Shown here piece after piece: positions 5,071 to 44,085 of a DNA stretch of 64,000 nt. Location: NCBI GenBank assembly GCA_964464115.1, contig CAYXEW010000002.1:488-64487 (forward strand), in the 5' to 3' direction. This DNA is from an uncultured Verrucomicrobiota bacterium. Its GTDB lineage: Bacteria; Verrucomicrobiota; Kiritimatiellia; CAYTQP01; CAYXEW01. Both the position numbers and the translations under genes were made by a program. The notes under the pieces were generated by a model. That model was not told the origin of the DNA. It did no database searches and was given only the letters and a program-made list of their open reading frames with translations. Each line of letters opens with the position of its first letter. Positions within the stretch are counted from its first letter, which is position 1.

Positions 5071-5141
5071 GGGGGATAGCGACAGCGGGGGTTCAGTCGA
5101 CGACGCCGCTATTCCTATCTAAGCATGTGAGGAGAAAAAAC

Positions 5142-6689
5142 ATGGAGAAGAGTAAGAATGTGACAGATGAGCGGTCACTGAAAGAGCTGGAGCTGTTGTA
5201 CCATATCAGCAGGCTGCTGGATCAGAGTCTGGACATGAGAGATATCGTCAATCCGGTACTGGATGCGCTGTCGGAATACATGAATATGAAGTATGCGACG
5301 CTGACGCTTTTCAACAGGAAAACCAACGACATTCTGATTGAAGCAGCGCACGGCCTCTCCCGCCAGCAGACGCGTCGTGGCCGTTATGAACTGGGCGAAG
5401 GTGTTACCGGGCAGGTCGTTCTGACCGGCAAGCCCATGATTATACCGAAGACCAGTGAATCAGAGGAATTCTTAAACCGTACGCAGCGCGGAAAAAGTGA
5501 AGACACCTCTTTCATCTGCGTCCCTATCAAAGTGGAGCAAACGGTCGTAGGCGCTTTAAGTGTAGATCGCGAGATAGCCTCCGACGATGAACTGGAGGGC
5601 GACCTCCGGCTACTGACCGTACTCTCATCCATGATTGCGCAGGCCGTAAGACTGAGGCAGCAGGCGCAGGAGAGCAAGGAACGTCTGGAAATAGAAAATC
5701 AGCGCCTCCGCGAGGAATTACGGGATCGCTTTAAACCCTCCAACATCATCGGTAACTGCCACGAAATGCAGATTGTCTACGATCAAATTGCACAAGTCTC
5801 CAAGAGTCCAACCACCGTATTGATTGAAGGTGAAACGGGCACAGGAAAAGAACTCGTGGCTCATGCCGTTCACTACAACAGCGATCGTGCAGACAAACCC
5901 TTTATCAAGGCCCACTGTGCAGCACTGCCGGAAGGCGTGATCGAAAGCGAGCTCTTCGGCCACGAGAAAGGAGCCTTCACGGGGGCCTTTGCAACACGCA
6001 AAGGCCGTTTTGAGCTGGCAGACGGGGGCACACTCTTCCTCGATGAAATCGGCGATATAACGACTGCCATGCAGATTAAACTGTTGCGCGTATTGCAGGA
6101 AAAAGAATTTGAGAGGGTCGGAGGAACCGAGACGCGACGCGTCAACGTACGCGTACTGGCTGCAACAAATCGAAATTTGAGTAAAATGGTGCAGGATGGA
6201 ACGTTTCGTGAAGATTTATTTTACCGACTGCATGTATTCCCCATATACGTGCCCCCGCTGCGAAAACGAAAAGCCGATATCGTTCTCCTCGCGGACCACT
6301 TCCTGGCAAAATATTCCAAGGAGACGGGTAAAAGCGTGCGCAGGTTGTCCAGCGCCGTCATTGATATGCTGATGAGTTATCACTGGCCGGGCAACGTCAG
6401 AGAGCTTGAAAACTGCATTGAGAGGGCTGTGCTGATGGCTGATTCAGACGTCATACACCCGCATCAGCTCCCCGCCACACTCCAAACAGCAGAGGCCAGC
6501 GGAACATCTACTCGCGGCTGCCTGAAGGAAAAAGTGGAAGGCTATGAGGCTGACCTGATACGGGACGCCCTGAAATCAGCGCGCGGCAATATGGCCGCTA
6601 CGGCGAGACTGCTGAATACGACGCAGCGTATCATGGGCTATAAAATTCAAAAGTACGACATTGATCCCAAACAGTATTCAGCTCAATAA
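5142..6689 (+). CDS. Sigma-54-dependent transcriptional activator, NifA-type architecture (GAF - AAA+ sigma54 interaction - Fis-type HTH), no receiver domain
   Basis: GETGTGKE Walker A, GAFTGA sigma54-contact motif, C-terminal HTH (ATARLLNTTQRIMGYK). Start at ATG 5142 after GAGGAG; the ORF begins at GTG 5127. Confidence 0.85.
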   Translation: MEKSKNVTDERSLKELELLYHISRLLDQSLDMRDIVNPVLDALSEYMNMKYATLTLFNRKTNDILIEAAHGLSRQQTRRGRYELGEGVTGQVVLTGKPMIIPKTSESEEFLNRTQRGKSEDTSFICVPIKVEQTVVGALSVDREIASDDELEGDLRLLTVLSSMIAQAVRLRQQAQESKERLEIENQRLREELRDRFKPSNIIGNCHEMQIVYDQIAQVSKSPTTVLIEGETGTGKELVAHAVHYNSDRADKPFIKAHCAALPEGVIESELFGHEKGAFTGAFATRKGRFELADGGTLFLDEIGDITTAMQIKLLRVLQEKEFERVGGTETRRVNVRVLAATNRNLSKMVQDGTFREDLFYRLHVFPIYVPPLRKRKADIVLLADHFLAKYSKETGKSVRRLSSAVIDMLMSYHWPGNVRELENCIERAVLMADSDVIHPHQLPATLQTAEASGTSTRGCLKEKVEGYEADLIRDALKSARGNMAATARLLNTTQRIMGYKIQKYDIDPKQYSAQ

Positions 6690-8930: not shown

Positions 8931-10265
8931 ATGATGAGAATAAAGAATAAATGGAAGACTCTTCTCCTATTAAGTCTGCCCCTCATCGCCGCGTCGGCGA
9001 CACTGGCAGCTGAAGGGGACGAGATCGGTGCTGTAGACGCTTTGAATCAAAGCTCGTACAGTATGGACAATCTGTTTCTGTTCCTGGGAGCAGTGTTGGT
9101 CATCTTTATGCAGCCCGGATTTGCTATGGTTGAATCCGGTTTCAATGCATCGAAGAATACCGTCAATATATTGTTCAAGAACTTGATGGACCTGTGTATC
9201 GGCGTCCTGTTGTACTTCATTGTAGGGTATGGCTTGATGTACGGCGAATCCTATCTCGGCGGATGGTTTGGCTGGGGCGGTTTTGGCGTCCCTATGGATG
9301 CACCCGCTGTCGAAGGCGGCGCGCTACATCCGCAGGTTGACTGGTTGTTCCAAGTTGCCTTCGCTGCGACTGCGGCAACGATTGTATCCGGTGCCGTTGC
9401 CGGGCGTATGAAATTCAAATCCTATCTTATTTACAGCGCTGTACTGACCGGCCTGATTTATCCGATCAGCGGTTTCTGGAAATGGGGCGGTGGATGGCTG
9501 GACGCCATGGGCTTTTACGATTTCGCGGGATCGCTGGTGGTGCACGCCGTCGGTGGATTTGCGGGCCTGGCCGGAGCTATTGTCCTCGGCCCGAGAATCG
9601 GTCGATTCTCTGTAGATGGAAAACCGAAGGCCATGCCGGGACATAATTTACCCTTGGCTACCCTAGGTGTTTTCATCCTCTGGGTAGGTTGGTATGGATT
9701 TAACCCGGGCAGCCAGCTGGCCATTGCCGGTGACGGCAACACCAATGCAGTCATGCTGATTGCCGCTAATACCACCCTGGCCGCAGCAGCGGGCGGATTT
9801 TTCGCCATGGTTACCACCTGGATTCTACACAAGAAACCGGACTTAACGATGGCATTAAACGGTGTACTGGCAGGCCTTGTCGGTATAACAGCCAACTGTG
9901 ACAGTGTTACAAATATCGAAGCTATTGTCATCGGTACGGTAGCCGGAATCCTGGTTGTACTGGGTATCAAGATGCTGGACGCGCTGAGAATAGACGATCC
10001 TGTTGGAGCTTTTCCCGTGCACGGCCTTTGCGGTGTCTGGGGAGGTATTGCCACATGGATCTTCGGTGGCCATCCAATGGTCGCCCAGATTGTCGGCTCC
10101 GTCGTCATCCCGTTATGGTCGTTTGTCACCATGTTCATTCTCTTCAGTATCCTGAAAGCTGCAGGTTTACTCCGCGTCTCAGAAGCTGAAGAACTCAGGG
10201 GTCTCGACATTGGCGAACACGGCGAAGAAGCATACAATGGCTTCCAAGTCTTCACCACCCAGTAA
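8931..10265 (+). CDS. amt: Ammonium transporter (Amt family), copy 1
   Basis: 444 aa with signal peptide and Amt/MEP signature regions (DFAGS..VH, GFNPGS). Confidence 0.9.
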   Translation: MMRIKNKWKTLLLLSLPLIAASATLAAEGDEIGAVDALNQSSYSMDNLFLFLGAVLVIFMQPGFAMVESGFNASKNTVNILFKNLMDLCIGVLLYFIVGYGLMYGESYLGGWFGWGGFGVPMDAPAVEGGALHPQVDWLFQVAFAATAATIVSGAVAGRMKFKSYLIYSAVLTGLIYPISGFWKWGGGWLDAMGFYDFAGSLVVHAVGGFAGLAGAIVLGPRIGRFSVDGKPKAMPGHNLPLATLGVFILWVGWYGFNPGSQLAIAGDGNTNAVMLIAANTTLAAAAGGFFAMVTTWILHKKPDLTMALNGVLAGLVGITANCDSVTNIEAIVIGTVAGILVVLGIKMLDALRIDDPVGAFPVHGLCGVWGGIATWIFGGHPMVAQIVGSVVIPLWSFVTMFILFSILKAAGLLRVSEAEELRGLDIGEHGEEAYNGFQVFTTQ

Positions 10266-10293
10266 CGATAGATGCTAAGAAGGAGATAAAGCC

Positions 10294-10635
10294 ATGAAAT
10301 TGATTGTTGCTTATATACAGCCGGAAATGCTGACAGCAGTAAAACAGGCGCTCTATGAAAAGGATATTTATAAAATGTCCGTCACGAACGCCCTGGGATG
10401 CGGCCAGCAAAAAGGCTACCATGAAACATATCGCGGTGTTGAAATCGAAGTCAACCTGTTGAAGAAAGTCCGCATGGAGATCGCCGTTAATGATGAATTT
10501 GTCGAAAAAACTGTCGAGGCCATTATTGGCGCCGCCAGATCCGGCAACATCGGTGACGGAAAACTCTTCATCATGGATCTCGCTGAGTGCATCCGAATCC
10601 GAACCGGCGAAAAAGGTAATGAGGCTATCGGATAA
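10294..10635 (+). CDS. glnK: P-II nitrogen regulatory protein (GlnK/NifI-like), copy 1; T-loop RGVEI lacks Tyr51
   Basis: 113 aa, P-II fold with GDGKLF and RIRTGE. Co-transcribed 28 nt after amt. Confidence 0.85.
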
Positions 10636-10663
10636 CGACGAACCGATAGTATGAAAACAAAGA

Positions 10664-10695
10664 AGAGAGCCTGCATAGTGCAGGCTCTCTTTTTT
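10664..10695 (+). terminator. Rho-independent terminator (AGAGAGCCTGCA-tag-TGCAGGCTCTCT + T6)
   Basis: 12-bp perfect stem plus T-run after glnK copy 1. Confidence 0.8.
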
Positions 10696-10871
10696 GTTAT
10701 ATTTATATAATATTAATACAATTATGTATTTTTATATAAAATATCTGTAACTTCCTCAAGCTACTTCCCCTCTACAACTAATCGTTAAATTATCTGTTAT
10801 ACCCTATACCATCGGGGAATTAAGCGAGAAATAACATGGCTCTGACATTTTTTTCACTTATTTTACTACCT

Positions 10872-10887
10872 TGGCACATTTATAGCT
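10872..10887 (+). promoter_or_regulatory. Sigma-54 promoter TGGCACatttatAGCTa upstream of amt-glnK pair 2
   Basis: GG-N10-GC spacing. 79 nt upstream of the amt2 ATG. Confidence 0.55.
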
Positions 10888-10950
10888 ATTTAAGGCTCTG
10901 GAGACACGGGAACGTTATCCCGGTTTAATGTCTGAATCTGAAAGAAAGGA

Positions 10951-12267
10951 ATGATTATGAATAGAAGGTACATATGGTTAGCTTTCCTGGGGCTTCTCTG
11001 CTTGGGAACAATGGGCGTGTATGCCCAAGATGCGGACGCGGGTGTTACGCCCGAAATGTTCACGGTAAACAACACCTGGATGATGGTGGCCACTTTTTTG
11101 GTCTTTATCATGCATCTCGGCTTTGCTACTGTTGAATCCGGTCTCACAAGAGCCAAAAACACAGTCAATATCCTGTTTAAAAACACTGCAATTGTCGCCA
11201 TTGGTCTGCTGACATATGCCCTTTGCGGATTCAACTTCATGTACCCCGGAGACTTCAACGGGTTTTTGGGATTTGCAGGGTTTGGTGTATCCAGCCCGGA
11301 GGGGGCTGCAGGCCTGATCGACTATGCCGGTGGTAATTACACGTACTGGACCGATTTTCTATTCCAGGGCATGTTTGCTGCTACTGCCGCAACTATTGTA
11401 TCGGGGGCGGTAGCCGAACGCATCAAGCTGCACAGCTTTCTCCTGTTTTCTGCCATCTACGTGGCGGTCATCTATCCCATTGTCGGATCCTGGAAATGGG
11501 GCGGTGGCTGGCTGGACGCTAAAGGTTTTTATGACTTTGCCGGATCAACGCTGGTACACTCTGTCGGTGGATGGGCCGCTCTCGCAGGGGTCATTCTGCT
11601 GGGACCGCGCTTCGGTAAATACGTGGCCGGCAAAGTTCGCCCCATTATGGGTCACAATCTGCCGCTCGTCACCATCGGCGTTTTCCTTCTCTGGCTGGGC
11701 TGGTTCGGGTTTAATGGCGGATCTGTACTGTCGGCAGATCCCGGCCCCGTATCTTTCACACTCGTGACGACATCCCTCGCGGCCGCAGCGGGCATCATCG
11801 GTGCCATGGCTACTTCATGGATCGTTCAGAAAAAGCCGGACTTGACGATGGTGCTGAATGGTTGTCTAGCAGGGTTAGTGGGTATTACCGCTGGAGCCGA
11901 TATCGTCTCCGTGGCGGCTGCTGTTGTGATCGGTTTATCGTCCGGAGTTTTGGTAGTGCTCTCTGTACTCTTCTTTGATAAGATCAGGATAGATGATCCA
12001 GTCGGCGCCATATCCGTTCACCTCGTATGCGGGATATGGGGAACACTGTGCGTCGGCATTTTCAGCCCGGATTACAGTGTCGGCGTACAATTGCTGGGCG
12101 TGGCTGCCTACGGTATTACCTGTTTTGGTTCAGCGTTTATACTGTTTTCGGCCATTAAAGCCACCATGGGCCTTCGGGTTGATGAACAGGAAGAACTCAA
12201 AGGGTTGGATCTCGGGGAACACGGTATGGAAGCCTATGGCGGATTCCAGATCTTCTCGAATCAATAA
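10951..12267 (+). CDS. amt: Ammonium transporter (Amt family), copy 2
   Basis: 438 aa paralog of 8931..10265 with signal peptide. Confidence 0.9.
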   Translation: MIMNRRYIWLAFLGLLCLGTMGVYAQDADAGVTPEMFTVNNTWMMVATFLVFIMHLGFATVESGLTRAKNTVNILFKNTAIVAIGLLTYALCGFNFMYPGDFNGFLGFAGFGVSSPEGAAGLIDYAGGNYTYWTDFLFQGMFAATAATIVSGAVAERIKLHSFLLFSAIYVAVIYPIVGSWKWGGGWLDAKGFYDFAGSTLVHSVGGWAALAGVILLGPRFGKYVAGKVRPIMGHNLPLVTIGVFLLWLGWFGFNGGSVLSADPGPVSFTLVTTSLAAAAGIIGAMATSWIVQKKPDLTMVLNGCLAGLVGITAGADIVSVAAAVVIGLSSGVLVVLSVLFFDKIRIDDPVGAISVHLVCGIWGTLCVGIFSPDYSVGVQLLGVAAYGITCFGSAFILFSAIKATMGLRVDEQEELKGLDLGEHGMEAYGGFQIFSNQ

Positions 12268-15974: not shown

Positions 15975-16220
15975 TCAACTCAAAGCCTCATCCTGTTTGA
16001 TCTTCCGCAGGATGCGTCCCACGGACATATTGTAAGGTGACATAGCCACCGACACACCATCACCGGGTTCCAAATCCCCGATCTCATCTTTTTCGCTTTT
16101 TTTTAGAAAAGCCACGATCTGGTGACCATTCCGCAATTCGGCACGAAAGGCCGTATTGTCTACCATATTCAACAACTGCGCGTCCAGCAAAATTCTATTA
16201 TTATTCTGCATTTTCTGCAA
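15975..16220 (-). CDS. infA: Translation initiation factor IF-1
   Basis: S1-like OB fold ([15 protein letters not shown]). TTG start. Overlaps map by 20 nt. Confidence 0.75.
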
Positions 16221-16959
16221 TGGTCAATATTTCAGCATTTGCTGACTGCACGAGTACGGTGTGCTCAAAATGCGCTGATGCCTTACGATCAGCCGTTTTC
16301 ACAGTCCACCCGTCTTCCATCACTTCAACTCCCGCCCCGCCCAAATTCACCATCGGCTCTATCGCCAGCGTCATACCATCGCTGAGTTTGGGGCCCCGCC
16401 CCGGCGAACCAAAATTTGGAATCTGCGGTTCTTCGTGCATATCGCGACCAATACCATGACCCACAAATTCGCGGACAACGGTGAAACCGGCTTTTTTCGC
16501 GGTCGACTCCACCGCGTGTGAAATATCGCCCACCCTGCTGCCGGCAACAGCTTTTTCTATTCCGTTTACCAATGCCTGTTTCGTGACATCCAGCAGTCGG
16601 AAAACTTCTTCATCCTGTGTGCCCACCGGAACCGTCAGGGCGGTGTCGCCCACAAAACCATCAAAGATCACTCCCACATCGACACTGACAACATCTCCCA
16701 GACCGATGCGCCGTTTTCCCGGGATGCCATGTACCACTTCTTCATTGACGGATACACAAATGTGGCCGGGATATCCGTGGTATCCCTTAAACGCACTCCT
16801 AGCACCGAAGTCGTGCATTTTTTTCAGCGCAAATTCATCGAGATCAGCCGTTGTCATTCCTGGCGCTATGCAGGCTGCCAATGCATCACGTATACTGGCG
16901 GCCATGCCGTTCGCCACCCGCATCTTCTGTATATCAGCATCCGACTTTATTTTAATCAT
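16201..16959 (-). CDS. map: Methionine aminopeptidase type I
   Basis: 252 aa with pita-bread metal ligands (D..D..H..E..E). Confidence 0.9.
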   Translation of the reverse strand: MIKIKSDADIQKMRVANGMAASIRDALAACIAPGMTTADLDEFALKKMHDFGARSAFKGYHGYPGHICVSVNEEVVHGIPGKRRIGLGDVVSVDVGVIFDGFVGDTALTVPVGTQDEEVFRLLDVTKQALVNGIEKAVAGSRVGDISHAVESTAKKAGFTVVREFVGHGIGRDMHEEPQIPNFGSPGRGPKLSDGMTLAIEPMVNLGGAGVEVMEDGWTVKTADRKASAHFEHTVLVQSANAEILTIAENAE

Positions 16960-16962
16960 CCA

Positions 16963-17613
16963 CTATGCCCCACGAAGGTGGCCGAGCATTGTTGTCACGG
17001 TCGACTCTTTATCTTTTGATGCATCAATGCGAACGAGTACGCCTTTCTGCTCGTAGTAATCGATTAAACTCTCTGTCTGCTTTTTGAAAACATCCAGTCG
17101 GTTGAGGACTGTTTCTTCATTATCATCAGCCCGCTGATAAGTTTCACCACCACAACGATCGCAGATGCCCTCTACGCGGGTGGGAATGTTGCGCACATGA
17201 TAGACTGCCCCGCAAGAGCGGCACACGCGCCTACCGGATAGGCGCTCCACCAGGGCTGTTTCCGGCACTTCCATCAAAAATACAGCATCGACAGCAGCCC
17301 CGGCTGCGGCCAGCGTCTCATCCAGCAGGGAGGCCTGCTCCAGCGTGCGGGGAAATCCGTCAAACATGTAGTCCGTCTGTCCCCCGTCGGCATGGATGCG
17401 ATCGCGAACAATACCGATGATAACTTCATCGGGAACGAGTTCACCACGCTCCATATAGCCCTTCGCCTCCATACCCACATTGCTGCCTTCTTTAACGGCA
17501 GAACGCAGCATATCGCCTGTCGAAATATGTGTATAGGAGGTGACTTCTTTAAGCTCCTCTGCAACCGTTCCTTTTCCAGCGCCCGGAGCGCCCAGCAGTA
17601 TAATTGATTTCAT
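16963..17613 (-). CDS. adk: Adenylate kinase (with zinc-binding LID: C-x2-C...C-x2-C)
   Basis: GAPGAGKGT P-loop. Lies in the spc operon after secY. Confidence 0.9.
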   Translation of the reverse strand: MKSIILLGAPGAGKGTVAEELKEVTSYTHISTGDMLRSAVKEGSNVGMEAKGYMERGELVPDEVIIGIVRDRIHADGGQTDYMFDGFPRTLEQASLLDETLAAAGAAVDAVFLMEVPETALVERLSGRRVCRSCGAVYHVRNIPTRVEGICDRCGGETYQRADDNEETVLNRLDVFKKQTESLIDYYEQKGVLVRIDASKDKESTVTTMLGHLRGA

Positions 17614-17619
17614 AATGGT

Positions 17620-18966
17620 TTACCTCCGGCTCCTCAATCGGCCCTTTTTCAAAAATCCGTCATAATGCCGCTGCAGCAGGTGCGTCTCAATCTGGCGCAT
17701 CGTGTCCAGCATAACACCTACCATAATCAGCATACTGGTCCCACCACAGAAGCTGGCTACCGTCCACGGTATACCGAACTGTTGAGCCAGCAATGAGGGC
17801 AGCACTGCAATGACCGTCAAAAACAGGGCTCCTGCCAATGTGATACGGGTCATCGAACGGTCCAGAAACTCTGCGGTCGGTTTACCGGGTCGGATGCCGG
17901 GTACATAGCCGCCGTGCTTCTTTAAATCATCTGCTATCTGCACCGGATTAAACTGCGTGGCCACCCAAAAATAAGAGAAGAAAAGAATCATCAATGCGAA
18001 AATTAAATTATACAGCGACGTGCCGTAATTCAAGGCTGCCGCCATCCGCTGGAATACATCGAGATCGACCATGCCCAGAAGTTTCGACGGGAACATCAGA
18101 ATCGCATTGGCAAAGATGATAGGCATAACACCTGCGTAGTTCACTCTGAGTGGCATGTAGGTGCTTTGCCCCCCATACACCTTCCTGCCCACCACACGCT
18201 TAGCATACTGTACCGGAATTTTGCGCTGAGCCTGCGTTATGGCAATCACACCGGCAATGACCAGAAATATCATAACCAGCAGGCCTATCAAATGGAATAT
18301 CGAGAAAGGCGAAACACCATCAACGGGTTTGAACATGTTGATGCCGGCATTCACGGCATCTGGCAGCCGACTGACAATATTAACGGTGATAATCATGGAA
18401 ATGCCGTTTCCAATACCTCGCTCGGTAATCTGTTCACCCAGCCACATCAGGAGCATAGTTCCGGTAGTCAAAGCCATGATAGAAATGAGGCGGAATGCTA
18501 TAGGTGATATAATGACAACCTGCCCCTGCAAACCGATCGCTTCAGGATGCAGCATCATTTCCGAGATGCCGTACCCTTGCACAACACAAAGCACCACTGT
18601 CAGATAGCGTGTGTACTGAGTGATCTTCTGCCGGCCCGTGTCACCTTCACGCGCCAAGCGTTCCAGAGCCGGAACCACGGCTGTCAACAGTTGCAGAATA
18701 ATCGATGCACTAATGTACGGCATGATCCCCAGCGTACCGACAGCGAATCGTTGCAACGCACCGCCGCTGAATAAATTATACAGCCCAGCAAAGGTTCCGC
18801 CAGCATTGCCCTGCATATTGGATATAAAGTTCTGAATGACGCTCGCATCGACACCCGGTGTCGGCACATTGGCAATAATACGGCAGATAAAAATCAGCCC
18901 CAGGCTGAACAGGATGCGCTGCCGCAGTTCGGGAATCTTAAAGCTATTGACAAACGCTGATAACAT
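17620..18966 (-). CDS. secY: Preprotein translocase subunit SecY
   Basis: 448 aa, 10 TM protein. Confidence 0.95.
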   Translation of the reverse strand: MLSAFVNSFKIPELRQRILFSLGLIFICRIIANVPTPGVDASVIQNFISNMQGNAGGTFAGLYNLFSGGALQRFAVGTLGIMPYISASIILQLLTAVVPALERLAREGDTGRQKITQYTRYLTVVLCVVQGYGISEMMLHPEAIGLQGQVVIISPIAFRLISIMALTTGTMLLMWLGEQITERGIGNGISMIITVNIVSRLPDAVNAGINMFKPVDGVSPFSIFHLIGLLVMIFLVIAGVIAITQAQRKIPVQYAKRVVGRKVYGGQSTYMPLRVNYAGVMPIIFANAILMFPSKLLGMVDLDVFQRMAAALNYGTSLYNLIFALMILFFSYFWVATQFNPVQIADDLKKHGGYVPGIRPGKPTAEFLDRSMTRITLAGALFLTVIAVLPSLLAQQFGIPWTVASFCGGTSMLIMVGVMLDTMRQIETHLLQRHYDGFLKKGRLRSRR

Positions 18967-24258: not shown

Positions 24259-24609
24259 CTACTCGGCAGCTGAAATCTGCTGATCGCTCAATGTTATTTT
24301 AATATGACTCATTTTTCTCTGAATAGGGCTCACCATACCGCGAGCTCTGGGCCAGTACCTTTTCATGATGGGGCCCCGATTGACGACGGCCTCCTTCACC
24401 ATCAGCGTCTCCGCTGACAATCCGGCATTATTCTCTGCATTGGCCACCGCTGACTTCAGTGTTTTACCTATCAGGACTCCGGCCTTCCTTTTATTAAAGG
24501 CCGTTATATTGAGAGCTTCCTGAACCCGCTTTCCCTGAATAGCGCGAGCCAGATCCCGTATCTTTGTCGGTGACACTCTCACAAATTTTGTTGTTGCAGA
24601 CACATCCAT
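24259..24609 (-). CDS. rplV: 50S ribosomal protein L22
   Basis: 116 aa L22. Confidence 0.9.
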   Translation of the reverse strand: MDVSATTKFVRVSPTKIRDLARAIQGKRVQEALNITAFNKRKAGVLIGKTLKSAVANAENNAGLSAETLMVKEAVVNRGPIMKRYWPRARGMVSPIQRKMSHIKITLSDQQISAAE

Positions 24610-24613
24610 TTTT

Positions 24614-25234
24614 TCAATGCCCTTCCTTCAACCCTAATACGGCCCGATCTTCTTTATCGGGCCACTGATCACTATATAAACTCTCAATAACAGCACCGGA
24701 TATTCGTTCCCGGACATCGACGACCCGCGCCGTTCCCAGCACCCTGCTGTCATGCAACAAGGTATACGTCAATCCGGGCTTTACACCCCGGTCCCGGCCA
24801 GCCCGCAATACAATCAGCGAAAGAGGCTTATTCACCGCTATAATGCTAACCCTGTCGGGCACCACAGAATCGTCATAAAAGTGCTTAACTTTTTCCAATT
24901 CAAGCACTTCCATTTTTTCAGCGAGCTGATTTCGCTCCCATTCCACTTTAACCAGAGAAACGTGTACTTTACGCAGTTGATTATTTAATTCCAGTATTTC
25001 TTTCGTTTTTTTTTCACGCTCTTCAGATAAGACCGCAATCAGCCTCTCAGATTCCCTCCATTCAGCAACGGAAGGCCTTTCATCTGCTCTATGATCAGCT
25101 ACTGTATTCGTACTGCCGCTGTTATTACCATTCAAAGAACGCTGCTCACAGCCCACAAAAAAGGCTGACAGCAGCACTATTAAAAAGAAGCCGGTCCCCG
25201 TATACAACCACAGCGGGTAATAGCGACCCTTCAA
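24614..25234 (-). CDS. Hypothetical lipoprotein (signal peptide with lipobox-like FVGC, coiled-coil, C-terminal beta-rich domain) embedded in the S10 operon between rpsS and rplV
   Basis: 206-aa ORF on the same strand. 14 nt after the rpsS stop and 4 nt before the rplV start. No ribosomal-protein features. Confidence 0.6.
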   Translation of the reverse strand: MKGRYYPLWLYTGTGFFLIVLLSAFFVGCEQRSLNGNNSGSTNTVADHRADERPSVAEWRESERLIAVLSEEREKKTKEILELNNQLRKVHVSLVKVEWERNQLAEKMEVLELEKVKHFYDDSVVPDRVSIIAVNKPLSLIVLRAGRDRGVKPGLTYTLLHDSRVLGTARVVDVRERISGAVIESLYSDQWPDKEDRAVLGLKEGH

Positions 25235-25247
25235 TGTATACCACCCG

Positions 25248-25532
25248 TTATTTCAGTGCGATGGTTTTATCCGTTACAGCTCCATGCCTTCTAAAGGCAC
25301 GGGTCGGAGAAAACTCTCCAAGGCGGTGACCCACCATATTTTCCGTAACAAACACATTTACAAAAACCTTCCCGTTATGCACGGCAAAGGTGTGCCCGAC
25401 AAAGTCAGGCGTTATCATAGAACGACGAGACCATGTTTTAATCGTCTGCCGCTTGATTTCTGCATTCATTTTGTCAACTTTCTTCTGCAGTTTTTCGTCG
25501 ACAAAAGGGCCTTTTTTAATGGATCGTGCCAT
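25248..25532 (-). CDS. rpsS: 30S ribosomal protein S19
   Basis: 94 aa S19. Confidence 0.9.
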
Positions 25533-28273: not shown

Positions 28274-30346
28274 TCATCGATTCATAATAGCCGTCTGTAT
28301 AGCTTCCGGCACTTGTTCAAACAATATTGGTTCCATCGAATAGCTGGCGCGGCCTTTAGTTAATGAACGCAACGCCGTCGCATATCCAAACATTTCAGAG
28401 AGTGGTACGTCGGCGCGCACGACTTTGGCCGACTCCATAGCTTCCATATGCTTCACGCGGCCACGACGACTGTTGATGTCGCCCATAATATCGCCCATGT
28501 GCTCTTCTGGTGTGATAATTTCAAGGGCCATAATTGGCTCTAGAATAGCGGGCTTCGCCTGTTTGCAGGCTTCACGAACGGCCATGACGGCCGCGCTCCT
28601 GAAAGCGACATCGGTGGAATCAACCGGGTGATACCGCCCACCGGTAATACGCACGTCCACATCAGAAAGCATGTAATTGGCCAACACGCCCGTCATCAGG
28701 GCGTCGCGTGCGCCCTCTTCTACAGATGAAACAAACTCGTGTGGAATCTGGTCAGGGCGGGCTTTCACGCAAATGACGTTGCCCGTCCCCCTCTCGCGAG
28801 GCACGACGCTCACCTCAACTTCAGCAAACTGACCCCGACCGGCAATTTCCCGATCAAACGTGTGCGTAGCACTAGCCGCGCCCGTTACCGTCTCACGATA
28901 AGCCACCATCGGTTTGCCGGCATTGGCCTGCACTTTAAATTCCCGGAACATGCGGTCTTTAATGATTTCGAGATGCAACTCACCCATCCCGCTGACAATC
29001 GTCTGACCGGTATCTTCATCGTGATGCACTTTAAATGTTGGATCTTCTTCAGAGAGGGACTGTAGCGAAGTGGCCAGCGCTTCGCGGTCTGCGGAACTCT
29101 TGGGCTCAATGGCCATGGATATAACTGGATCGGGAAATTCGATGTTTTCCAAAACGATTGGCTTATTCTCAAAACAGAGTGTGTCACCAGTTGTGACATT
29201 CTTAAACCCGGGTATTCCCCCAATTTCACCCGCGAACAGCCTGTCAACCTCTTCGCGGTGATTCGCATGCAACAGTACAATTTTACTAACGCGCTCCCGT
29301 TTCCCGGTACGGGGATTATAGACGTTCTTCCCTTTTTCCAGACACCCCGAATAAACGCGGACAAACGTCAGTTTACCCATATACGTGTCGGAAGCCACCT
29401 TGAAAGCCAGCGAGCTCAGCGGCTCATCATCACTGGTTATGCGCGTCTCCACTTCATCTGTTTTAGGGTGTTTACCTTGGACGGCAGCCACTTCAACCGG
29501 CGCAGGAAGATAATCGACCACGGCGTCAATCAACGGCTGGATTCCTTTATTCTTGAGCGCGGAACCGCAAAGTACCGGCACGATAGCGCTCTGAATGACA
29601 AGCCTGCGTATGCCGGCCTTGAGTAGCGCGATATCCACTTCCGGTGAATCCAGGTAAGCCTCCATGACGGCATCATCTTTTTCAGCGATGGCTTCTACCA
29701 TCTCCGCACGCGCTTTTTCGGCAGCCGCCGCCAGCTCTCGGGGAATCTCGACGGGCTCTACTCTGGCCCCGAGGGATGTCTCATCAAATTGGAGAGCCTG
29801 CATCGTTATGAGATCAATGACACCGTTGAAATCGTCCTCACTGCCCCATGGAATCTGAATAGCAACGGCCGGCGCCGCCAGTTTTGAGCGCATCTGCTCG
29901 ATCACGCGATCAAAGGAAGCACCTAGGCGATCCATTTTATTGACAAAAGCGATACATGGAACATGGTATTTGCGGGCCTGACGCCACACGGTTTCGGACT
30001 GAGGCTGAACGCCGCCGACTCCGCAAAAAACGCCGACCGTCCCATCCAGTACGCGTAGGGATCGTTCAACTTCAACGGTAAAATCGACATGGCCCGGTGT
30101 ATCGATGAGGTTGATCTGATGGTGCTTCCATGTACATGTGGTGGCGGCACTCGTGATGGTTATACCGCGCTCCTGCTCCTGCGCCATCCAGTCCATCGTA
30201 GCACTGCCATCATGAACTTCGCCCATTTTATGGACTTTACCGCTGTAAAACAAAATCCGTTCACTGACGGTGGTCTTACCGGCGTCAATGTGTGCCATGA
30301 TACCCATATTACGAGTCTGAAGCAGAGAGCAACGGCGACCCGGCAT
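28274..30346 (-). CDS. fusA: Elongation factor G
   Basis: [13 protein letters not shown]1 motif. Start placed at [16 protein letters not shown] by alignment to EF-G N-termini; the ORF extends to 30406. Confidence 0.9.
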
Positions 30347-30417
30347 CTCACACCGGGACTCTTCTTTGCTATTCTTTTTATCAGACTGTTTCACGGCTAC
30401 GGTCATAACGGCTATTT

Positions 30418-42367: not shown

Positions 42368-42444
42368 TGGCAGGTCAGGAGGGACTCGAACCCCCAACCC
42401 TCGGTTTTGGAGACCGATGCTCTGCCAGGTTGAGCTACTGACCT
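42368..42444 (-). tRNA. tRNA-Trp (anticodon CCA)
   Basis: Manual fold: acceptor AGGTCAG/CTGACCT, anticodon loop CTCCAAA, T-loop GGTTCGAGTCC, encoded 3' CCA. Canonical position between tuf and secE. Confidence 0.85.
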
Positions 42445-42705: not shown

Positions 42706-43914
42706 CTATTCGACGATCTCGGTTACGCGACCGGCTCCAACCGTGCGACCGCCTTCACGAATAGCAAAACGCATGAATTGCTCCATGGCGATCGGTGTGA
42801 TCAGTTGTACATCCACGGCTATATTGTCACCCGGCATGACCATTTCCACACCTTCGGGCAATGTAATATCACCCGTCACATCCGTCGTTCGGAAGTAGAA
42901 CTGAGGGCGATACCCTTTGAAGAATGGCGTGTGGCGGCCGCCTTCTTCTTTGCTCAACACGTATACTTCAGCTTTAAACTTGGTGTGCGGTGTGATCGAA
43001 CCCGGCTTGGCCAGCACCTGCCCGCGCTCGACATCTTCTTTCTTGATACCGCGCAGTAGGCAGCCAATATTATCGCCAGCTTGACCCTGATCCAGTAGCT
43101 TGCGGAACATTTCCACGCCTGTCACTGTAGTCTTGACCGTATCTTTCAAACCGACAATTTCGATTTCCTCGCCAACTTTCACAATACCGCGCTCAACTCG
43201 ACCAGTCACCACCGTGCCACGACCCTCAATGGAAAAGACGTCTTCAATCGGCATCAGGAAAGGCTTGTCTGTTTCACGTTCCGGCTCCGGAATGTAGGAG
43301 TCCAGCGCGTCCATTAATTCCTGTATGCACTTGGCATCTTCATGATCCGGTGCGGGCGCTTGAATCGCCTTGAGGGCAGAACCGCGAATGACCGGCGTAT
43401 CGTCTCCGGGATACTCATATTTGCTAAGCAGCTCACGCACTTCAAGTTCTACGAGATCCAGCAACTCCGGATCATCGACCGTGTCACATTTATTCAGAAA
43501 CACGACAACACGCGGAACGCCCACCTGGCGGGCGAGCAGAATATGCTCACGCGTCTGCGGCATCGGACCGTCCGATGCACTCACGACGAGAATAGCGCCG
43601 TCCATCTGAGCTGCACCCGTAATCATGTTCTTCACATAGTCCGCGTGACCGGGACAGTCGACGTGAGCATAATGGCGAGCGTCAGACTCGTACTCGACGT
43701 GCGATGTCGCAATCGTCAAAATCTTTGTAGCATCACGGCGACCCTGGGATTCAGAGGCCTTGGCAACTTCATCGTATGCGACATAATGGGCCATACCCTT
43801 GTCGCCCTGCACCTTTGTAATCGATGCCGTCAGCGTTGTTTTGCCGTGATCAACGTGACCAATCGTACCTACGTTTACATGTGGTTTTGTTCTTTCGAAT
43901 TTATCCTTCGCCAT
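42706..43914 (-). CDS. tuf: Elongation factor Tu
   Basis: 402 aa with GHVDHGKTT. Confidence 0.97.
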
Positions 43915-44009: not shown

Positions 44010-44085
44010 TGGAGCCCACGAGCGGGATTGAACCGCTGACCTCATCCTTACCAAGGATGTGCTCTACCAACTGAGCTACATGGGC
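44010..44085 (-). tRNA. tRNA-Thr (anticodon GGT)
   Basis: Manual fold: acceptor GCCCATG/CGTGGGC, anticodon loop CTTGGTAAG, T-loop GGTTCAATCC, encoded 3' CCA. The thrT-tuf arrangement is conserved. Confidence 0.85.

Follow-up and report, generated by a model that had tools for sequence, protein, structure and literature searches.

The S10 operon in a 64,000-nt stretch of contig CAYXEW010000002.1 (assembly GCA_964464115.1), from an uncultured Verrucomicrobiota bacterium, carries a 206-aa open reading frame (ORF) between rpsS and rplV, the genes for ribosomal proteins S19 and L22. We refer to this ORF by the working name gene X and to the whole stretch as the window. Our preferred reading, to which we assign a probability of roughly 0.6, is that gene X is genuine and has been inherited vertically as part of the S10 operon in a Verrucomicrobia-type lineage, and that it encodes an exported, non-ribosomal protein consisting of a stalk and a barrel. 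A location of the product in the cell envelope is well supported by the features of its sequence, and a partner and a role may be proposed by analogy with known proteins.

Gene X lies on the same strand as its neighbors inside the string S10-L3-L4-L23-L2-S19-L22-S3-L16-L29-S17, separated from rpsS by 13 nt and from rplV by 4 nt. These spacers are too short to hold a promoter of its own, in agreement with the assignment of the gene to the S10 operon in an earlier first-pass annotation of the window. The coordinates of the ORF and the 4 nt to rplV given there were also correct, but the 14 nt between rpsS and X were counted as 13 here. The rpsS stop codon is the TAA at 25250-25248, and an in-frame TGA at 25255-25253 lies 5′ of the TTG start of X, so that no start farther upstream is possible. 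The gene ends with the TGA at 24616-24614, and the rplV ATG follows at 24609. A motif scan around X found no excess of promoters or terminators, and the rpsS-X spacer leaves no room for either; no GC anomaly was found at X when one was looked for. Since X has no promoter of its own and the putative Shine-Dalgarno (SD) sequence of rplV is located within the 3′ end of X, X is probably co-transcribed with its neighbors and coupled to L22. The latter arrangement is typical of translational coupling and suggests that the translation of X and L22 may be linked.

We explored the possibility that gene X is an artefact, that is, a spurious, frameshifted or misassembled ORF without function. Its TTG start, the lack of a database family and a codon adaptation at the low end might be read in this way. 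However, in the independent Logan assembly of run SRR7048222 (L092) the same protein of 206 aa, letter for letter, is flanked by an S19 of 94 aa and an L22 of 116 aa, and this identity excludes a frameshift or misassembly. Homologues of X occurred in 291 clusters, defined at 50% identity, with E ≤ 1e-3, and in 19 with E ≤ 1e-10, when 1.84 billion cluster representatives were searched exhaustively with phmmer; a word-indexed search with X returned seven proteins and a word-indexed profile search at least 19. The homologues share invariant or near-invariant Gly, Arg and Asp columns, their synteny is kept across loci whose L2 proteins are just 55-65% identical, and the fold is confidently predicted. 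Neither the damaged fragment nor the lack of homologues that the first-pass annotation had raised against itself was thus found. On the basis of the conservation data and the second assembly, we rejected a spurious or misassembled ORF, the probability of which we consider negligible.

The position of gene X was the same in every single-barrel member with readable flanks. In about 95 loci the order was S19-X-L22, and tblastn with the L2, S19, X, L22 and S3 proteins of the window recovered L2-S19-X-L22-S3 in every locus with enough flanking sequence. The homologues that had been found by sequence alone were all located between rpsS and rplV (P0002, P0003, P0004, P0006, P0158, P0164, P0008 and L093), and a metagenome scan with the AGGLIE subfamily gave a single locus, L093, again with the order S19-X-L22. 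The first-pass annotation had regarded an insertion at this junction as not standard. The term insertion is right historically, but within the clade the gene is standard at the junction in every related locus examined. Over 85 loci, the median gap is 4 nt from the S19 stop to the start of the X ORF and 30 nt from its end to L22. Non-ATG starts were called in 34 of 77 non-redundant copies of X, where the call takes the first start after a stop and over-extends the ORF in some loci.

Among the roughly 95 loci, the carriers that are named are almost all Verrucomicrobiota. A motif scan of the GTDB species-representative genomes, which covers motif-bearing relatives and does not set the taxonomic limits of the family, confirmed 162 relatives. 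The best 80 of these 162 loci are labelled almost wholly as Verrucomicrobiota (Chthoniobacterales, Terrimicrobiaceae, ‘Spartobacteria’ and Verrucomicrobiae), and metagenome-assembled genomes (MAGs) labelled Chthoniobacter flavus carry the gene. The pairwise identity of the X barrel correlated with that of L2 (Spearman 0.62, 2415 pairs), the former falling from 0.92 to 0.34 as the latter went from above 0.95 to 0.55-0.65. Because the divergence of X tracks that of L2, vertical inheritance is indicated. The same values indicate that X evolves faster than the ribosomal proteins.

Two of the loci deserve separate mention. In a JGI metagenome contig (L007, 5190-5939), the S19-L22 interval holds ORFs of 98 and 146 aa that are one gene of the family split by a single in-frame stop (...GSND-stop-LLDLVTSE; compare ...GSHDELLELVTSE in P0159); this stop is a sequencing error or a nonsense mutation. 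The other, L023 (JANMKA010000044.1, 2.9 kb), was binned to a MAG named ‘Blastocatellia bacterium’ (Acidobacteriota) and shows S19-X-L22-S3 like the Chthoniobacterales loci. As the contig is short, we most likely see a binning error here rather than an occurrence of the family in Acidobacteriota.

Searches of Pfam and NCBIfam with the window protein gave no family match, just sub-threshold coiled-coil noise (PEARLI-4, DUF7934 and Lsa20). X is therefore not a member of a known family in these databases, an alternative that the first-pass annotation had considered, and no ribosomal-protein family matched it, consistent with the non-ribosomal nature stated there. Where its homologues have a name at the source, it is ‘hypothetical protein’. 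We found no published description of X or of a lineage-wide gene that interrupts the S19-L22 junction of the S10 string. In an alignment of 111 members (A1), G146 and R175 are invariant and G150, G154, V174, G180 and D196 are near-invariant, and the C-terminal motif of the family reads G..xGV.pGm.F.V.R....vArvrVvDVRe.iaGAviE......P..GDR. The members range from 150 to 290 aa in length. This S19-L22 intergenic family is characterized by an export signal, a heptad coiled coil, one C-terminal barrel with the G..G..G, DVR and GDR motifs, and a gene between rpsS and rplV. The window protein has this architecture, these motifs and this position, and it matches the barrel profile of the family with E=3.7e-30.

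A ‘signature protein’ of the Planctomycetes-Verrucomicrobia-Chlamydiae (PVC) bacteria, CT421.2, was considered as a possible match. It is a PVC signature protein of 53-80 aa that is also present in Chlamydiae and Planctomycetes (Gupta et al. 2012, PMC3444138). Like X, CT421.2 is lineage-restricted in PVC bacteria and has no assigned function. It was rejected since it differs in size and architecture from X, which at 150-290 aa has a signal peptide, a coiled coil and a barrel.

The N-terminus of the family has the properties of an export signal. A strongly hydrophobic 15-mer begins at about residue 7 in 127 of 168 family proteins, and most of the others are fragments. Lys and Arg average 2.5 in the N-terminal flank of this segment versus 1.7 in the C-terminal flank, and Asp and Glu 0.28 versus 2.49. 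These flanking charges indicate the signature of an export signal, with the N-terminus predicted inside and the C-terminus outside. The copies from Chthoniobacterales have textbook signal peptides for signal peptidase I (SPase-I) with an AxA motif, for example ...LSLSGASA/RDDRSLTDF (slash, cut site). In the window copy, K2 and R4 precede a 20-residue h-region that ends in F-V-G-C29, where the Phe at -3 is non-canonical with respect to the lipobox [LVI][ASTVI][GAS]-C. By our reading, a more permissive PROSITE-style lipoprotein pattern accepts this sequence. It is plausible from these features that the window copy is a lipoprotein, as the first-pass annotation had it, but this does not extend to the family. 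A lipobox-like Cys was present in only 23 of the 127 members with a signal segment and the Cys is not conserved; lipidation is therefore not a family property, and many members have AxA signal peptides instead.

A short motif follows the signal in part of the family. RS[LF] was found directly after the signal in 42 of 195 members, compared with 3.3% of background windows. It recurs as R-S-[LF]-(T/N) after a signal peptide or an anchor, as in ASA/RDDRSLTDF of Chthoniobacterales and C29-EQ-RSLNG of the window. The motif could mark a conserved N-terminus of the mature protein, or it could act in sorting or binding.

The remainder of the protein was examined by AlphaFold2 (AF2) modelling and by comparison with known structures. 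Over the whole protein, the model scored 84.8 in the predicted local distance difference test (pLDDT), with values of 96-98 for the helix and the barrel, and the barrel modelled as a domain by itself gave a pLDDT of 90.6 and a predicted template modelling score of 0.80. The export signal, extended coiled coil and C-terminal beta-rich domain noted in the first-pass annotation are borne out by the hydrophobic N-terminus that ends in FVGC29, a helix at residues 56-119 and a beta-rich domain at 129-200. In the family alignment, conserved hydrophobic residues at 69/76/83/90/97 and 87/94 give a heptad register for the helix. Position 73, assigned to heptad position ‘a’, is Asn in 54% of members; parallel coiled coils typically show such a pattern. 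Between anchor and barrel lie 51 to 165 residues (5th-95th percentile). The barrel was at the C-terminal end in 168 of 168 proteins, only two of which have two barrels.

These two-barrel relatives sit outside the S10 operon. P0058 (L095 1975-3120) is a protein of 381 aa with a transmembrane (TM) segment, a coiled coil and two barrels, and its gene is found among lgt, a pseudouridine synthase gene, a murA-like gene of the EPSP_synthase family and mreB. P0146 (L096 31-1476, 481 aa) adjoins ruvB. The cell-wall neighborhood of P0058 is a weak hint of an envelope role. Since both genes are off the operon, the barrel superfamily is wider than the family described here, and it is the single-barrel form that resides in the S10 operon.

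In a Foldseek comparison of the barrel with the PDB, FlgT came first (8z5n_0 with a TMq of 0.73 and 3w1e with 0.69), followed by the N-terminal crown of the F1-ATPase alpha and beta subunits (TMq about 0.62-0.67) and MreC (0.48-0.53), with E-values of only about 1e-3 to 1e-2. Neither of the two Foldseek searches listed a ribosomal protein among its best 50 matches. By sequence, the best PDB match of the full-length family profile was MreC (9dvb_C, E=6.7e-4), over the coiled coil and a G-x-x-x-G-L-R-P-G-M loop, and that of the barrel-only profile was TsaP (E=0.008). FlgT_C (PF16538) matched 34 of the 111 members weakly (best E=7.6e-4) and MreC (PF04085) five (best E=0.017), none of them at the Pfam cut-off. 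The window protein itself matched neither PF16538 nor PF04085, the latter at E ≤ 10.

These similarities raise the question of whether X is one of the known proteins in a new place. X could be a divergent MreC, or a functional replacement of it, that has moved into the S10 operon, in which case it would be bitopic and its periplasmic barrel would activate the elongasome enzymes PBP2 and RodA. MreC (9dvb, 2j5u and 6zlv) has an N-terminal membrane anchor, a periplasmic coiled coil, a six-stranded beta-barrel and a loop of the form G-x-x-x-G-[VL]-x-x-G-M. X follows this plan of anchor and coiled coil, with AF2 helices at 9-34 and 56-119 before the barrel, and the family profile aligns to the coiled coil and the first barrel loop of MreC (G-x-x-x-G-[LV]-x-P-G-M) as its best PDB sequence match; MreC chains are among the Foldseek matches as well, and the two-barrel relative P0058 is encoded near murA-like and mreB genes. 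However, MreC has two barrels and X has one, many members have cleavable signal peptides and hence are not bitopic, and X fails PF04085. The E-value of the MreC match is inflated by coiled-coil composition, and both FlgT and the F1 crown reach a higher TMq than MreC. In addition, every locus read has X between rpsS and rplV and never next to mreB or mreD, whereas MreC is encoded in the mreB-mreC-mreD cluster. We consider this explanation improbable. It is even less probable that X forms part of a ring in a flagellar, pilus or secretin machine and is encoded in the S10 operon by coincidence. The C-terminal domain of FlgT (PF16538; 3w1e and 8z5n) and the FlgT_C-like repeats of TsaP (3jc8) are the closest barrels by structure and are all periplasmic; FlgT is the best structural match, TsaP the best barrel-only sequence match, and about a third of the aligned members match FlgT_C weakly. 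Yet FlgT is a three-domain flagellar ring protein, and X lacks its N and M domains and has a coiled-coil stalk; TsaP has LysM and several barrels around a secretin, and X has a single barrel and no LysM. No flagellar or pilus genes are adjacent to X and every match is below threshold.

Two other explanations assign X a function of a different kind. As a tether or spacer similar to Braun's lipoprotein, X would be fixed in a membrane at one end, bind peptidoglycan or the opposite membrane through its barrel and set or stabilize the width of the periplasm. The lipobox-like Cys29 of the window copy, the heptads of parallel type with their frequent Asn at ‘a’ and the barrel at the extreme C-terminus are all consistent with such a function, and an operon with high expression would be a fitting place for an abundant structural protein. 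On the other hand, the stalk varies about three-fold in length, many members are left without any anchor after cleavage of the signal peptide, and family scans found no recognizable peptidoglycan-binding domain (no LysM, OmpA or SPOR match). A tether is unlikely in our view, if worth keeping in mind. The first-pass annotation had suggested a lineage-specific envelope or ribosome-associated factor, and it is the envelope part that stands. A cytoplasmic or ribosome-associated factor, for instance one that faces the cytoplasm with its C-terminal domain and ties ribosomes or the products of the S10 operon to the membrane, would fit a gene between two ribosomal-protein genes with probable translational coupling to L22, and the barrel fold does occur in the cytoplasmic F1 alpha and beta subunits. 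These F1 barrels have the same six-stranded topology as X, with a root-mean-square deviation of 2.2-3.0 Å, and pack into a ring, but they belong to a cytoplasmic ATPase of 500 aa and are only about 10-18% identical to X, with no sequence-level signal. Against this, the positive-inside charges predict that the C-terminus is out, the Sec signal peptides of relatives are cleavable, X matched no family of ribosomal or RNA-binding proteins, and the closest barrels by sequence (FlgT_C, TsaP and MreC) are periplasmic. We rejected a ribosome-binding protein on the basis of the export signals, and the chance that X is a ribosome-associated factor appears very small.

Instead, the charge distribution, the cleavable signal peptides and the periplasmic fold relatives place X outside the cytoplasm. 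Barrels of this type dock onto or pack around larger assemblies, as those of MreC do with PBP2, those of FlgT and TsaP in rings, and those of the F1 crown. We propose by analogy that X is most likely a scaffold or adaptor on an envelope machine or a cell-wall synthase. After export, the window protein may stay tethered to the membrane through a lipidated Cys29 or an uncleaved anchor and may oligomerize through its coiled coil. The barrel would then be held about 9-10 nm into the periplasm, by our estimate from the 64-residue helix, where it could dock on a partner in the envelope, for example a cell-wall synthase or a machine that spans the envelope, or pack side by side with other barrels. 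X would be transcribed with the ribosomal proteins and its translation coupled to L22, so that its supply might follow the growth rate, as that of secY does in the spc operon. Non-ribosomal genes within ribosomal-protein clusters have precedents in secY, adk, map and infA, which are embedded in the spc and alpha clusters. X resembles these as an envelope or housekeeping gene that is presumably co-transcribed with ribosomal proteins. They are near-universal and belong to the spc and alpha part, whereas X is confined to a lineage and splits the otherwise near-invariant S10 string at the S19-L22 junction.

Several observations weigh against this proposal. The similarities to FlgT_C, MreC and TsaP are all below the family thresholds, with a best E of about 1e-3, and function is therefore not transferable by homology. 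Anchoring varies by lineage among soluble, lipobox-like and TM-like forms, so that tethering may not be essential, and the about three-fold variation in stalk length argues against a strict role as a spacer or ruler. The suggested coupling to growth rate comes from operon position only. The first-pass annotation had taken the placement to suggest stoichiometric co-expression with ribosomal proteins; the TTG start and the weak SD sequence argue against a translation of X equal to theirs. Together with a codon adaptation index (CAI) of 0.70 compared with 0.71-0.78 for the ribosomal proteins, a measure that is nearly uninformative in this genome, they suggest that the output of X is probably below that of the ribosomal proteins. 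Lastly, the window ribosomal proteins are 61-77% identical to those in the related loci that were fetched; since the genome in addition lies outside the species representatives, its source is a deep relative.

A further possibility is that the gene is retained at this very junction because its location has a function of its own. If X is exported during its translation, the polycistronic S10 mRNA might be tethered to the membrane, together with the production of S19, L22 and S3, or X might form a direct dosage link between the making of ribosomes and the growth of the cell envelope. We regard this as a speculative option with little weight. If it were true, X would serve the whole lineage as a device that couples ribosome biogenesis to the envelope, and would not be a passenger gene.

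The features of the locus and of the protein are compiled in Table 1.

Table 1. Gene X, its parts and its neighbors in the window; residue numbers refer to the 206-aa product.
Feature	Position	Strand	Description and basis
Gene X	24614..25234	minus	206 aa, TTG start; ORF list and sequence reading
rpsS	25248..25532	minus	Ribosomal protein S19, 94 aa, directly upstream of X; ORF list, Pfam Ribosomal_S19 on identical assembly L092
rpsS-X spacer	25235..25247	minus	13 nt; read from sequence
SD-like GGGTGG	25246-25241	minus	6 nt 5′ of X TTG, inside rpsS-X spacer; read from sequence
SD-like GAAGGAAGGG for rplV	24620..24629	minus	About 10 nt 5′ of rplV ATG, within final X codons; sequence reading
rplV	24259..24609	minus	Ribosomal protein L22, 116 aa, directly downstream of X; ORF list, Pfam Ribosomal_L22 on identical assembly L092
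Residues 1-28	25151..25234	minus	Positively charged n-region MKGRYY and hydrophobic segment ending F-V-G; signal peptide or membrane anchor; sequence, AF2 helix 9-34
Cys29	25148..25150	minus	Candidate lipidation site, F-V-G-C; sequence, aligned with SPase-I cut sites of relatives
Residues 32-34	25133..25141	minus	R-S-L; short motif recurring after signal peptide in distant relatives (RSLT[DN])
Residues 56-119	24878..25069	minus	Single long helix, coiled-coil stalk; AF2 pLDDT 96-98, family heptad register
Residues 129-200	24635..24850	minus	Six-stranded beta-barrel; AF2; G146..G150..G154 ... VVDVR175..GA ... P192..GD196R
secY candidate	17620-18966		Window ORF at expected downstream position; position only
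adk candidate	16963-17613		Window ORF at expected downstream position; position only
map candidate	16201-16959		Window ORF at expected downstream position; position only

Other parts of the window were noted in passing. Two tRNA genes (42371-42444 and 44013-44085, minus strand) flank a 402-aa ORF at 42706-43914, the expected position of tuf, which makes this ORF a tuf candidate by position. In an Rfam search of the window, these two tRNAs were the only matches at gathering level and no ribosomal-protein leader RNA families were detected. In the longest ORF for EF-G (28274-30406, minus strand, 710 aa), about 30 additional N-terminal residues precede the conserved start of the G domain, and the true start is probably an internal Met. 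On the plus strand, two tandem ammonium-transporter genes at 8931-12267 are arranged as amt, a PII-like ORF and amt. The small ORF between them (113 aa, 10294-10635) was recognized as GlnB/GlnK-like by eye, and a gene for a GAF/sigma-54 activator lies upstream at 5127-6689.

Few gene strings of bacteria are as conserved as the S10 operon, and in this clade it carries a lineage-wide non-ribosomal passenger. Because the string is so conserved, a vertically inherited, clade-wide non-ribosomal gene inside it is unusual. What is new in X is not its parts: a signal, a coiled coil and a FlgT_C-like barrel are familiar domains and the passenger gene is a familiar principle, and they are found here in an undescribed and strongly conserved form. 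X defines a sizeable family with a confident fold prediction, for which neither Pfam nor NCBIfam has a model, and it provides a large lineage of Verrucomicrobia type with a clean marker that resembles a synapomorphy. It may be possible to culture some of the carriers, as the MAGs labelled Chthoniobacter flavus would suggest; if so, the retention of X would be directly testable. For the biology of this lineage, X points to an envelope protein whose supply may be wired to ribosome synthesis.

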